Below, one piece after another: positions 1 through 62,552 of a DNA stretch of 64,000 nucleotides. A program made the position numbers and the translations under genes. Numbering within the stretch: position 1 is the stretch's first letter; each line of letters begins with the position of its first letter. The DNA comes from Candidatus Thorarchaeota archaeon (lineage in GTDB: Archaea; Asgardarchaeota; Thorarchaeia; Thorarchaeales; Thorarchaeaceae), in assembly GCA_046482545.1 (NCBI GenBank), contig JAWOEX010000022.1:1-64000 (forward strand). The letters are read 5' to 3'. The notes below the pieces were generated by a model. It did no database searches. It worked only from the letters and a program-made list of their open reading frames with translations, and was not told the origin of the DNA.

Positions 1-67
1 GGGGAAGGGTGGAACACAGAAGTTTCCTCAGTTGGGTTCACTCACTCAACTGTAAGAAATGGGTTAT
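1..67 (+). mobile_element. 3' end of dispersed structured element (copy A), truncated by window start
   Basis: GGGGAAGGGTGGAACACAGAAGTTTC...CTCAACTGTAAGAAATGGGTTAT is nearly identical to the 3' end of copy E (reverse complement of 59094-59152). Confidence 0.9.
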
Positions 68-15728: not shown

Positions 15729-15792
15729 ATAACCTGTTTGAAACTTCTGCATTCCCCCTTCCCTGCCAATGTCACCGCCCCAAGATACTCCT
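15729..15792 (-). mobile_element. Degenerate 3' remnant of dispersed element (copy B)
   Basis: Reverse complement reads GGGGCGGTGACATTGGCAGGGAAGGGGGAATGCAGAAGTTTC-AAACAGGTTAT, matching copy D's 3' end with the terminal hairpin deleted. Confidence 0.8.
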
Positions 15793-15991
15793 GGGAGAAC
15801 AATTGAGTTCATGGAAAAACAGAGGGAACCATTCGAAAGGAGCAAGTAAACCAGCGACCCGGTCCATGCAGGCCAATCTGTTCTCATATGGTAGTTAGCA
15901 TGAAATCTTACAGAAATTTTACACTTCTGTATACAGATTCATTTAGAATTCTGTAAGCTTTATACTTTTTTTGAGTTACGCTTTCAAGGTC

Positions 15992-17752: not shown

Positions 17753-17873
17753 ATAACCAAAGTCTTACAGAATCATAATAATTGGGGTAGAGAAGTGCAA
17801 CATTTCCTGCAAGTCTTCTACGGGCCAAAGACGGGGGAGGTTATTAGTTCCGGTATGGAACGCCGTCCCAGCA

Positions 17874-18295
17874 TGACTGGGCAAATGGGCTAGTACTCTG
17901 ATACGACACACACGGCCGAAAGCCTAAGGGAAGACCAGTCTTCTAAGCAGAAGCACTCACTCTCCAAACAAGGGACTCCATCGAGTTCAGGAGAGTCCAC
18001 GGCTGTTCACCATGTCTAGACGTATCTTCTCAGCTACGGTGATAAGGCTGAGGTGAGTGATCATGACCACGCCGTGGTAAGGACTGTGGAAGAGTTCGCT
18101 GTCGCCGGGAGTGATGACCCGGGAACACGACAGGAGACAGAAGTTAGGACCGCAGGATGGATATTTCCCAAATGATCGTCGAAAAAGTCTCTGCTTGGCC
18201 GGGGGTAGCGTCTCGGTATAGTGGTGACACTGGGCAACGGAAGCGTGGAACAAACAAGTTTCACGCAGTTGCTACAACTGTAAGAAACAGGTTAA
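17874..18295 (+). mobile_element. Dispersed structured element, copy C (divergent)
   Basis: Colinear with copies D/E (CTCAGCTACGGTGA.AAGGCTGAGGTG, CCGGGAGTGATGACCCGG, CTGTAAGAAACAGGTTA); intergenic between convergent hypA and rps8e. Confidence 0.9.
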
Positions 18296-25281: not shown

Positions 25282-25619
25282 TTTCTTTTCCTCCTTGATT
25301 CTAAGCATTCTTGATATTGAGGATGTTAGATGATATATATCTTCTACGATAGACAACGTATATGAGGCTAACGTGTACAATTAGCACGCTCGAAAGCAAA
25401 ATATAAACGTCTCACTTGAGCTTCTCCCATTGAGCATGTGACGATTGACTTGATAATCTCTTGACAGATGAAAGATAAACTCCATCGAGGTCAGCGCAAT
25501 TATGCCTCTTCTTAAATCCACATCCAGTTCTTTCCCCGCGTCGAAAAAAGTCTTGGACAATATACCTTATACCATGCGCGTCAAATGTAGCAGTCTTGCT
25601 CGTGATGTCAGAGAAATCG

Positions 25620-26079
25620 ATTAGACAGACTACAGTACCGGATATCAGTAGGGCTAGGGCGGTGAGCCGCTCCTCAAAGGGAGAAGAGATCAGTCCCGAA
25701 GGCTGTAAGGAAGATCCAGTCTTCTAAACAGAAGTCCTTACTCTCCACTAAAGGAACTGCATCAGGTTTCGGAGAGTCTGCGGCTGTTCACCTTGTCTGA
25801 AATGGATCTTCTCAGCTACGGTGACAAGGCTGAGGTGGGTAATCATGATCACGCCGTAGTACGGATTGTGGAAGACCCCGCTGTTGCCGGAGTGATGACC
25901 CGGGAACATGACAGGAGACGGAAGCCAGGCCCGTTGGAGGAATCCAATTCCGGTGAACGTGGACGAAGCCCCTGCTAACCCGAGGGCCTACGGGTAGCCT
26001 TGGGAGCGGCGATGGTGGCAGGGGAAGAGTGGAACACGGAAGTTTCATGCAGTGTACTCAACTGTAAGAAACAGGTTAT
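25620..26079 (+). mobile_element. Dispersed structured element, copy D (full length)
   Basis: Aligns end to end with copy E from ATTAGACAGACTACAGTACCG to CTGTAAGAAA..GGTTAT. Confidence 0.93.
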
Positions 26080-26196
26080 TAAGATAGAATTCCGCAGAAA
26101 AGATTTTTCGCTATAGTCAGGTTTATAATAATTCTAGAACTGGCTCAATTCGTCCAGAAGGACTGTACATACCAATTGGTGAATAAGTTGTCGTCT

Positions 26197-58644: not shown

Positions 58645-58660
58645 ATTACCCTCTCAAACT

Positions 58661-58954
58661 TTATTTCTTAAGGACTATTAGAATCAAGCCCTCTTTCTCA
58701 TCAGGCGCGATATTAATCTGACCTTTAGATGTGTCAAGTGTAAGGAACGACAGCGAGCCCTCTTTGAGCTCTCGTACTGCGTCCAAAGCTTTACCAACAA
58801 GAGATGTCACAATTGCTGCGATATTCTCAGTTGTTTGAGCGTCGAGATCACTACTCAGGGGTAGTCCTTCCATGCTTGTCACAATCACGCCGCGAACTCC
58901 TTCCTGAGCTTTGAGCTTGGAAAGGATTGATTGTAGTCTTTCTTGGCTTATCAA
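58661..58954 (-). CDS. Roadblock/LC7 protein (DYNLRB-like size)
   Basis: [31 protein letters not shown]. Confidence 0.9.
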
Positions 58955-59093
58955 CTTCTGGAATCCCCACTGATGGCAATCATGCTCTTGGCATCTAGTA
59001 GGCCACTTTTGGGTATTTTAGACTTGTGGCAATGTGTTATCTGAAATATGCCCTAATTGCGCAAAAGATACCATAATGTAATGCACTATCTGT

Positions 59094-59551
59094 ATAACCC
59101 ATTTCTTACAGCTGAGTAAACTGCGTGAAACTTCTGTGTTCCACCCTTCCCCTGCCAGCGTCGCCGCTCCTACGGTACCCGTAGGCCCGTGAGTCAGCAG
59201 GGGCTTTGTCCGCGTTCACTGGAATGGGATTCCTCCCGCGGTCCTGGCTTCCTTCTCCTGTCGTCATCCCGGGTCATCACTCCCGGCAACAGCGAGGTCT
59301 TCCACAGTCTTTGCCACGGCGTGGTCATGATCACCCACCTCAGCCTTGTCACCGTAGCTGAGAAGGACCATCTAGACATGGTGAACAGCCGCGGACTCTC
59401 CGGAACCTGATGAAGTTCCTTCAATGGAGAGTGGGGACTTCTGTTTAGTGGAACGGATACACCTCACAGCTTTCGGGGCTGAGCGCTTCTCCCGTTGGGA
59501 GTGGCTCACCGCCCTAATCCTACTGATATTCGGTACTGTAGTCTGTCTAAT
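59094..59551 (-). mobile_element. Dispersed structured element, copy E (full length)
   Basis: Reverse complement aligns end to end with copy D (25620-26079). Confidence 0.93.
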
Positions 59552-59728
59552 GAATTTTTCTTTGGTCACAAAAAGGGCTCGATGAAATCTTACACTTTAC
59601 TGTGCTGATTTACTTAGGACTTTGTAAGATTTACAAAGCTCTTGAACTCCTGAGTTGTTTTTGTTCCTTTCCACCAATCATTTATGCGAGGATTGTTGCA
59701 TACCGGTAGTACAACCGGGGACACGAAC

Positions 59729-60763
59729 ATGGGTACAAAACTCGGATCGATTGTCCAGGCGGAGACACTCTCACTATCGGATTTATCTGGTCGTGAGATT
59801 GCAATAGACGCCTTCAATTCAATATATTCTTTCTTGGCGATAATCCGTCAGCCGGACGGCACTCCTCTCAAAGATCAAAAGGGGAGAGTAACAAGCCATT
59901 TGAGCGGCCTTTTCTACAGGAATATCAACCTACTTGAAAAGGGCATCTACCCTATTTATGTATTTGATGGAGAACCACCTGAGCTCAAGTCTGAAGAAAT
60001 AGAACGCAGAAAAAAGGTCAGAAAAGAAGCTCGGAAAGAATGGAAAAAAGCCAAGGAAGAAGGGCGGATAGAGGATGCTAGAAAGGCCGCCCAAGCAAGC
60101 TCTAAACTCACGGAAGAGATGGTCATCGATAGCGAGGCACTACTGTCTGCCCTAGGCATCCCTCATATACAAGCCCTCTCGGAAGGCGAAGCACTGGCCG
60201 CTCAGCTCGCAAGAGAAGATATGGTCTGGGCAAGTGCAAGCCAAGATAACGATTCCCTTCTCTATGGTTGTCCGCGCATGATACGCAATCTGACCATTTC
60301 AGGTCGCCGAAGATCTTCCTCTTCTACTGGTTATATCACTATCGAGCCTGAACTCATTGATCTTGACCTTAACCTCCGATTACTTGAAATATCCCGTGAG
60401 CAGCTAATAGATATAGCAATCCTAGTTGGTACTGACTACAATGATTCGCCTCCAGGTATTGGCCCCAAGACTGCCTTGAAGCTGGTCAAAGAACACGAAA
60501 ACCTTGAAGGGATAGAATCAGCAACTGATTTTGATTTTGATTTTCCATATGAAAGGATTCGTGGCATATTCTTGAACCCTCCTGTAGTAGAAGTAGAATC
60601 CCCAGAGTGGGTCGACCCAGACTTCGATGGCGTCCGACGGATTCTGTGTGATGCACATGATTTCAGCGAAAAAAGGGTTGATAGTTCCCTTGAGCGGCTC
60701 AAGGCTTCATTAGAAAAAATACGAGATACCACCCGACAAAGTGCTTTAGAAGATTTCTTCTAA
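59729..60763 (+). CDS. fen: Flap endonuclease 1
   Basis: MG start, AIDAFN, IRQPDG.PL, TSHLSGLFYR, VFDG, EGEA, SQD.D, GTDYN, GIGPKTA, PIP box QSALEDFF. Confidence 0.97.
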   Translation: MGTKLGSIVQAETLSLSDLSGREIAIDAFNSIYSFLAIIRQPDGTPLKDQKGRVTSHLSGLFYRNINLLEKGIYPIYVFDGEPPELKSEEIERRKKVRKEARKEWKKAKEEGRIEDARKAAQASSKLTEEMVIDSEALLSALGIPHIQALSEGEALAAQLAREDMVWASASQDNDSLLYGCPRMIRNLTISGRRRSSSSTGYITIEPELIDLDLNLRLLEISREQLIDIAILVGTDYNDSPPGIGPKTALKLVKEHENLEGIESATDFDFDFPYERIRGIFLNPPVVEVESPEWVDPDFDGVRRILCDAHDFSEKRVDSSLERLKASLEKIRDTTRQSALEDFF

Positions 60764-60869
60764 TCAAAGACCAAAAAATCAATCCCATTCACAAACATTC
60801 AAGAACACTCTTCGGATGGACATGATAAATATGGTCTTGCACACACCTAGTTGTACATGGTGAAGCATA

Positions 60870-61577
60870 ATGATGCGTGAAAGAATGACAGCTGTTAGAG
60901 CCTGCGTAAGTGATATAGTCGACGGCAAATATGCGGATGATACCGGTCCCCATGTGGTTTCCCCTCATGGTGTAGAGCTTCGCCGTGTAGTACTACTCGG
61001 TTTTGTTGTCAACAAGTATACTGGTGATGGCAATTTTGCAAGTATAACGATAGATGACGGCACTGAAACTATCAGGGCTAAGGCTTGGGGAACTGAAGCT
61101 GCTTTACTCGAGGAAACCCCTGAAGAAAAGCTTGTGCTAGTTGTTGGCAAAATCCGAGAATATGAAGATGAGACATATGTTGTACCTGAAATAATAGAAG
61201 AAGTCGAAGACTCTAATCTCATGACCCTTCATCTGCTGGAACGATACCAAGCGTTGCTTACACGAACTGGTCTTTCGACATTGGAAACACCGCCGGAGGA
61301 AATATCGGAAACGCAATCAAGACAAGAAGAGACTCTCTCTACTGAAAACACACTTACCTCATACGCACACGAAGAAGACACAGCTGTCACGCTTTCTGAA
61401 CAGATACTTCAGTTCATCCAAAACAGAGCCGGTCAAGAAGGTGTCAAACTAAATGAAGTTGTCGAGCATTTCACAGCCAAGGGTGAGAAGAAATCAGATA
61501 TCACTCTGAAGGTTATCGATTTACAGGATACTCAGAGAATTCGCGAAGTAGAGATTGGCCGATATGTTTCCGTGTGA
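60870..61577 (+). CDS. RPA32-like OB-fold protein with C-terminal winged helix
   Basis: RVVLLGFV, ITIDDGTETI.AKAW, VVGKIREY; C-terminal winged-helix pattern. Confidence 0.8.
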   Translation: MMRERMTAVRACVSDIVDGKYADDTGPHVVSPHGVELRRVVLLGFVVNKYTGDGNFASITIDDGTETIRAKAWGTEAALLEETPEEKLVLVVGKIREYEDETYVVPEIIEEVEDSNLMTLHLLERYQALLTRTGLSTLETPPEEISETQSRQEETLSTENTLTSYAHEEDTAVTLSEQILQFIQNRAGQEGVKLNEVVEHFTAKGEKKSDITLKVIDLQDTQRIREVEIGRYVSV

Positions 61578-62436: not shown

Positions 62437-62485
62437 ATAATCCGTTTCTTACAGGGTGAATGAACTCAACTTGCCTGAAACTTCT
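62437..62485 (-). mobile_element. Solo 3' terminal hairpin of dispersed element (copy F)
   Basis: Reverse complement AGAAGTTTCAGGCAAGTTGAGTTCATTCACCCTGTAAGAAACGGATTAT closely resembles copy A 18-67. Confidence 0.75.
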
Positions 62486-62552
62486 ATTACTTCGTGACCT
62501 ACTGGTAGATATCCGGCGACTTTAAAGCAGATATGAAGTATTCCAAAATGAG

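Follow-up and report, generated by a model that had tools for sequence, protein, structure and literature searches.

The window, by which we mean the whole 64,000-nucleotide stretch of Thorarchaeota DNA analysed here, contains six places (A to F) belonging to one dispersed repeat family, all recovered by a profile search of the window and all with housekeeping genes as neighbours (rpS8e, EF-1beta, Cdc48, FEN1 and roadblock). Copy E (59095-59639, minus strand) is a complete 545-bp unit composed of a leader (59537-59639; profile match at E = 6e-16) and an RNA module (59095-59536; profile match of the body 59092-59536, E = 6e-142), flanked by the hexamers TCAAGA (59640-59645) and TACAGA (59089-59094). 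Copy C (17753-18294, plus strand; profile body 17858-18294) is an older complete unit of 542 bp with leader and RNA module, in which the match between the flanking hexamers, CCTTGA and ATAGTA, has been lost. Copy D (25585-26078, plus strand; profile match 25635-26082, E = 1e-135) has lost its leader and consists of the RNA module, that is, a putative omegaRNA scaffold and a right end finishing in GGTTA, directly followed by the hexamer TTAAGA (26079-26084, plus strand); its 5' end is approximate (25585-25620), and the DNA upstream, up to 25619, aligns with a sister species. D and E, which the sequence-only reading had aligned end to end at 80-85%, are inverted copies with 85% identity over 479 nt by BLASTN (blocks at 83-89% between 25610-26087 and 59086-59561), and C, described there as a more divergent near-full copy, is 77% identical to D over 393 nt by BLASTN (four blocks at 78-87%). 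The same reading took A, B and F for 3' ends only. This is right for A (1-66, plus strand; profile 1-69), the 3' end of a copy cut by the contig start, which carries the long terminal-hairpin variant with GTTCACTCA and has the hexamer TCAGGA next to it at 67-72, but wrong for B (15730-15983, minus strand), an internally deleted unit without the terminal hairpin that is made up, by profile, of a leader (15898-15968), about 100 nt of unrelated sequence and a 3' fragment (15732-15794). F (62437-62486, minus strand) is a short right-end-like fragment whose profile match is marginal (E = 7.5e-4).

The family is far larger than the at least six copies first counted in the window, so that the earlier description of it as dispersed was correct and understated. 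A profile built from copy D gave 93 matches, 41 of them full length, in the 3.05-Mb source genome (G000; 45 contigs, completeness estimate 98.9%), and a chance origin is excluded by this number and by E-values reaching 1e-145. Seven matches lie at contig ends, and the true number is therefore higher. The genome holds 31 complete units and about 75 right ends, and the family including its leader occupies 34.5 kb, or 1.13% of the sequence. When the copies were aligned together with their flanks, conservation extended about 110-135 nt 5' of the start of the ~460-bp repeat into an AT-rich leader; this leader had been missed, the 5' boundary having been set about 120 nt too far in. By their profile-derived end points the 31 complete units are 566-618 bp long, or 553-591 bp without the flanking hexamers, and the right boundary at GGTTA is sharp across the 75 right ends.

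The hexamers flanking the units follow the consensus TCNNGA. In 20 of 35 units the left hexamer is the same as the right one, compared with 2.9 after shuffling, and 10 different hexamers occur; closely related copies bear different hexamers, and the hexamer shows no co-variation with the adjoining element sequence. In most units the two flanks match over exactly 6 nt, and in some (C9:140956, C18:4625, C20:236754 and C28:141692) the match continues past the hexamer by 2-5 nt. Removal in silico of the unit and one hexamer restores open reading frames of 240-487 aa at six sites. The unit at C24:2549-3120 interrupts a gene that reads through for 487 aa once the unit is removed; at the orthologous site of both sister species (G001 and G002) the gene is uninterrupted and contains a single hexamer, TGAAGA, exactly where the source genome has TCAAGA on both sides of the unit. 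Insertion of the unit makes a genuine 6-bp target-site duplication with the consensus TCNNGA, and its demonstration at this exact empty site overturns the earlier statement that no duplication exists. The accompanying denial of terminal inverted repeats was roughly right: comparison of the two ends found no convincing ones beyond a short inverted octamer, TYTTACAR, that lies 9-11 nt from each tip and is common to both ends, and the best ungapped match between the ends was 9.1 of 20 positions against 7.5 after shuffling, a marginal difference. Both ends also have hairpins and the motif CTGTAAGA in direct orientation. At C18:5191-5230 and C12:139440-139480 the right end of one unit abuts the decayed left end of another, and the junction between hexamer and left end of an older copy appears to have been re-used as a target there. 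A 1.66-kb composite unit with a second leader inside lies at C22:202865-204534, and two units stand head to head, with their left ends adjoining, at C20:181316-182441.

Comparison with the sister species supports the mobility of the copies that had been suggested, with orthologous sites as its test, in the sequence-only reading. Neither G001 nor G002 has a copy at the sites of B and C, that of C being occupied by just 28-31 nt, and the empty site of C24:2549-3120 is exact; this gene-disrupting copy was used because the intergenic DNA around the empty site of copy C has diverged too far for the exact hexamer to be read. Besides inserting, the copies are associated with a rearrangement: the segment of about 33 kb between D and E (26085-59088) is inverted relative to the two sister species. 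The flanks of D and E map on G002:C43 to 101289-102336 (-) and 59930-61208 (+), and to 98206-99481 (+) and 58646-59885 (-), and G001:C47 has the same pattern. In the sister species the left flank of E lies next to the right flank of D, and the two flanks bear the near-matching hexamers TCAAGA and TTAAGA, so that we read the TTAAGA after D as the pre-inversion partner of the TCAAGA at the left end of E. At the other inversion junction about 1.5 kb present in the sister species is missing together with the leader of D. Recombination between two inverted copies is the simplest cause of the inversion. By BLASTN, the only method with which relatives were searched and which makes the range a lower bound, matches were obtained in 18 of the 24 genomes searched from the same taxonomic family and in 0 of 16 outside it; both tnpB-linked and stand-alone modules are present in other genera.

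The origin of the units is revealed by copies that are linked to a gene. In three of the first-examined full-length copies the leader is replaced by coding sequence for the zinc finger (CxxC...CxxC) and the RuvC-III end (NADRNG) of tnpB. A six-frame search of the genome found five intact tnpB genes and one that is broken or truncated, with the module directly after every one. The window was correctly said to contain no transposase; tnpB-bearing parents lie elsewhere in the genome, one of them outside the window on its own contig (C23:122410-124035), and another of the tnpB genes is at C28:133571-135202. The tnpB reading frames of 544-559 aa match the Pfam TNB (Cas12f1-like) domain at 47 bits (cut-off 26.3) and NCBIfam guided_TnpB at 84-92 bits, just below the cut-off of 100 (NF040570 at 92). 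RuvC-I (GIDLG) and RuvC-III (NADRN) are present, and RuvC-II has Gly at the canonical Glu position; "rearranged" TnpBs with this Glu-to-Gly change have been described and are predicted to be active (PMC10691335). The TnpB core ends near residue 447, and the frame then runs about 95 aa into the module to a stop at alignment column 289. The start of the module falls at about TnpB residue 455 in each of the 5-6 intact genes, on the tnpB strand, and the tail (residues ~455-544; module alignment columns 21-289) overlaps the first two RNA domains. Hundreds of Thorarchaeota homologues, about 557 aa long, retain this ~95-aa tail in full, and the initial ~270 nt of the parent's module are thus under both coding and RNA constraint. 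The position of the ~445-nt module after tnpB and its overlap with the 3' end of the gene indicate that it is the TnpB omegaRNA together with the right end of the element. A coding explanation for the stand-alone copies was rejected, as about 30 of 36 have an interrupted tnpB-tail frame; the open reading frames called over the copies, earlier dismissed as artefacts, are indeed artefacts or dead tnpB tails.

Leader matches were found 7.7-7.8 kb upstream of two tnpB-linked modules. The two parent intervals so delimited (C28:133385-141692 and C20:228517-236754) share leader, tnpB and module, represent elements of 8.25-8.32 kb with the same leader and right end as the ~580-bp units, and each carries one and the same hexamer at both ends (TCAGGA in one, TCTGGA extended by TTGC in the other). 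Their order is an AT-rich left end of about 110 nt, a giant gene on the opposite strand, tnpB, the ~445-nt module and the right end finishing in GGTTA. A deletion series connects them with the short units: there are intermediates 1.7-1.8 kb long, and solo leaders that have pieces of the 3' end of the giant gene next to them. The stand-alone copies are internal-deletion derivatives of this ~8.3-kb tnpB element with both ends kept; an internal deletion removed what lay between left end and RNA module, and the resulting unit of about 555-560 bp then multiplied. About 20-170 nt upstream of the tnpB start (L001 = C28:133200-136300, and likewise L002) there are two TTTAAATA boxes some 95-110 nt apart, bracketing a short sequence that resembles the 3' end of the omegaRNA (GAGTGAACTCAACT..GAAACAGGTTAGAG); the bracketed sequence may represent a miniature guide-like RNA, or else serve regulation from within the tnpB promoter region.

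The module has a large, conserved secondary structure. RNAalifold on 39 copies gives 83 consensus pairs in three domains; 95% of the pair cells are canonical, compared with 36-48% in controls with one strand of each pair shifted, and compensatory double changes occur in 24 of the 83 pairs. The consensus fold has an energy of -56 kcal/mol on the element strand, against -21 for the opposite strand, and the excess of G-U over A-C pairs (502 versus 60) fixes the RNA strand as the tnpB strand. A long-range helix is formed between AUGACC (columns 225-230) and the 3' GGUUAU, with G-U, A-U and G-C variants. Two forms of the terminal hairpin exist, short and long; GTTCACTCA belongs to the long one and is carried there by the tnpB-linked copies and by many short copies. 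An invariant, C-box-like GUGAUGA is present in a hairpin loop of all copies, with CUGA upstream (columns ~268-277; GAGTGATGA at 25889-25897 of the window), and this hairpin may be an L7Ae-type K-turn or K-loop. The Rfam search named earlier as a check on novelty was negative, with no gathering-score match in the window and none even at E <= 1 on three copies. There is weak evidence that copy D is transcribed: one metatranscriptome contains low-depth contigs identical to 25678-25828 and 25922-26166, the latter reaching 87 nt past the end of D, for which DNA carry-over is a possible source; the contigs cover parts of D only, and uncovered stretches are uninformative.

We propose that the repeat is likely a TnpB guide-RNA (omegaRNA) module, and that most of its copies are miniature non-autonomous versions of the transposon to which that module belongs. 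The two halves of the earlier suggestion, a non-autonomous element or an RNA gene family, would then both hold, the copies being gene-less derivatives that conserve a large structured RNA. The short unit would be moved in trans by the transposase of the parent, for which the giant protein is the candidate. Transcription would start in the leader, pass through the scaffold and continue into the adjoining DNA, so that each copy would yield an omegaRNA with its own right flank as the guide, and TnpB from the 5-6 intact genes would use these RNAs to cut matching DNA without the element, which in turn would promote re-copying and retention. If the guide is specified by the copy's own flank, the scaffold is needed in cis, and tnpB is dispensable from the copy because TnpB can be supplied in trans. 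Every one of the 75 right ends is followed by different DNA that occurs nowhere else in the genome, which would be expected of copies that each specify their own guide, and none of these 75 right flanks had a second genomic target. The left flanks have a weak bias (T or A at position -1 in 20 of 25, and never T at position -3), and no adjacent motif (TAM) could be derived from the left flanks of the units. As a consequence of the 6-bp duplication, the DNA to the right of the element is the same in filled and empty sites, which leaves the usual sparing of filled sites by TnpB unaccounted for.

Old copies would decay under this proposal and, as dispersed repeats, would also cause rearrangements. 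Stems have accumulated changes private to single copies at almost the rate of loops (0.60 and 0.70 per column, respectively), and 57 of 83 private stem changes (69%) break a pair, implying that selection acts on propagating lineages. Many resident copies are probably decaying almost neutrally, and most of them may lie outside selection. Given this near-neutral decay, and with even the closest pair of copies only about 94-95% identical, the earlier description of the element as actively spread is not borne out. The same two observations, and the many truncated fragments in the genome, would also suit the view that the stand-alone copies are inert deletion remnants, in which the module was kept through its adjacency to the right end and its structure is inherited and idle. 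However, more than 30 units share one deletion architecture of 566-618 bp, indicating that the short form itself has multiplied, and compensatory changes separate the stand-alone subfamilies. No short form without the 445-nt module was seen, though a transposase would need only the two ends, and stand-alone modules recur in other genera. We regard inert remnants as an unlikely competitor of the guide-RNA reading.

The second component of the parent element is the giant gene, which encodes 1,410-1,655 aa, lies between leader and tnpB in divergent orientation to the latter, and is present at four loci in the source genome, among them L004:3422-8389 (+), corresponding to G000:C28:136509-141476, and L005:2369-6601 (+), corresponding to G000:C20:230588-234820; it also stands beside tnpB on an unrelated Thorarchaeota metagenome contig (L088:3107-8740). 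The protein had no match in Pfam, in NCBIfam or, by single sequence and by profile, in PDB, and its homologues are Thorarchaeota hypothetical proteins only. It possesses a RecB-type D..DxK..QxxxY motif, and about 260 residues are modelled (pLDDT 67) with a RecA/RAD51/KaiC-like fold (Foldseek E = 1.6e-5) in which the P-loop is degenerate; Atlas feature scores do not exceed 0.77 and serve as a lead only. A Cas1-like N-terminus, considered from motifs picked by eye, was not supported by a PDB profile search, by Pfam on 18 members or by hhalign, which gave 0.1% probability against 10 Asgard Cas1 sequences. For the N-terminal model, a poor one (pLDDT 57), Cas1 chains appeared 5 times in the best 50 Foldseek rows, at a non-significant E = 0.9-3.4, alongside generic helical bundles, and on re-alignment the top rows held no Cas1. 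Pfam Cas1 has no match in the genome. Serine recombinases of the Resolvase family likewise had no match in this genome, estimated to be 98.9% complete. The giant protein is our candidate transposase.

An ordinary non-autonomous, PATE-like element of the IS200/IS605 type would offer a more familiar explanation, in which single-stranded DNA is moved by a Y1 TnpA and the conserved structure represents DNA hairpins. TnpB is typical of IS200/IS605, both ends of the units have the hairpins and direct CTGTAAGA motif mentioned above, and the genome does encode one Y1 transposase. That sole gene (C24:6134-6874) is unlinked, with neither tnpB nor element ends nearby, and only about the first 100 aa of its 246-aa frame match the family (positions 1-98 of a 121-position model) before a hydrophobic tail. 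IS200/IS605 elements make no target-site duplication, whereas a true 6-bp duplication is present here; the hexamer varies among closely related copies, and a multi-domain fold of 445 nt that includes a long-range helix goes beyond two subterminal hairpins. We consider this explanation very improbable. With the Y1 gene unlinked, the duplication present and no Resolvase-family match, the parent is not an IS200/IS605 or IS607 element by mechanism. A bolder form of the guide-RNA reading is that the short units are guide-RNA-carrying parasites of a transposon class without a described mechanism, one that combines TnpB with a giant protein (RecB-like motif, RecA-like fold) in place of a Y1, serine or DDE transposase, makes a 6-bp TCNNGA duplication and has a ~445-nt omegaRNA overlapping the TnpB tail. 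Since the right flank is the same in filled and empty sites, TnpB in such a class would need a mode of action unlike IS200/IS605 retention, and might recognise a left-flank motif or, while transposition is under way, act on the site already filled. We put this forward tentatively, as a possibility with the balance still against it.

It is still less probable that integration itself is RNA-guided, with the flanking repeat as a partial guide copy, perfect near the seed and mismatched further off. The 2-5 extra nucleotides matched at C9:140956, C18:4625, C20:236754 and C28:141692 could be read in this way, but most units match over the hexamer alone and at least two of the longer matches (C18 and C12) are explained by insertion beside the decayed left end of an older copy; the empty orthologous site is a single hexamer in otherwise contiguous sequence, as a plain duplication predicts, and the lack of co-variation between hexamer and adjacent element sequence also speaks against guiding. 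Equally remote is an independent structured RNA (a ribozyme, self-splicing intron or retroelement RNA) adjacent to tnpB by accident: its large, highly structured nature and the copies inside genes would fit, but Rfam gave nothing at E <= 1, group I and II intron models included, a reverse transcriptase is absent, the end of the module coincides in every case with the transposon's right end, the module overlaps the 3' end of tnpB on the same strand, and the same TnpB family of the same length recurs in hundreds of Thorarchaeota records.

The guide-RNA reading puts a name to a so far unannotated 1.1% of an Asgard genome. With about 75 site-specific guides, tens of diverged scaffolds and 5-6 effector genes, the family is a natural data set that could define the structure and the minimal form of an unusually large TnpB guide RNA in the archaeal lineage closest to eukaryotes. 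The presence of TnpB in a duplication-making element without a recognised transposase bears on how RNA-guided nucleases moved from one type of transposon to another in the evolution towards Fanzor and Cas12. Because the repeats interrupt genes and mediate inversions, they matter for Asgard genome assembly and synteny comparison.

Among known systems, archaeal and bacterial MITEs are internal-deletion derivatives of insertion sequences, and the short units resemble them in being gene-less, in having both ends of an autonomous element and a target-site duplication, in their tens of copies, and in inserting within genes and causing rearrangements. They differ from MITEs in that about 80% of the unit is a conserved structured RNA and the inverted repeats amount at best to an 8-nt motif. 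PATE elements, non-autonomous derivatives of IS200/IS605, can also be likened to the short units, and the characterised TnpB omegaRNAs are far shorter than 445 nt. A functional parallel exists with the stand-alone omegaRNA loci of the OMEGA systems (Altae-Tran et al. 2021, as presented in PMC10691335), which according to that account act in trans: in both cases the scaffold sits at the right end with the flank as guide (here a predicted one), the copy has no effector gene, and many copies accompany few intact tnpB genes that possibly serve them in trans. By this analogy the short elements probably work like such loci. Unlike OMEGA loci and PATE elements, the family described here makes a 6-bp target-site duplication without a linked Y1 or serine transposase, its scaffold is ~445 nt long compared with roughly 100-250 nt, the scaffold overlaps a conserved ~95-aa TnpB tail, and the 8.3-kb parent encodes a giant protein that matches no family.

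The parent, judged by its sequence, resembles the published Asgard aCas1-TnpB transposons (groups Cas1H-Asgard-1 and -2; PMC10691335), with which it shares an Asgard host, a repeat-flanked TnpB locus and GTTCACTCA downstream of tnpB, here in the long hairpin variant that includes copy A. A Cas1 domain in its giant neighbour could not be confirmed by Pfam, NCBIfam or PDB sequence searches (hhalign 0.1%), Cas1 chains occurring only among non-significant fold matches, and the hypervariable stretch inside the aCas1-TnpB locus, where a possible guide was placed (PMC10691335), is not seen here. Miniature derivatives, a 6-bp duplication and an RNA structure are not described for the aCas1-TnpB elements in that paper. 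Since the module is a putative TnpB guide RNA, and both stand-alone omegaRNAs and Asgard TnpB elements are already known (PMC10691335), the novelty first attributed to the repeat was overstated. What is new is the miniature form with a transposase known only as a candidate, the 6-bp duplication, the size and structure of the RNA, and its overlap with the coding tail of TnpB.
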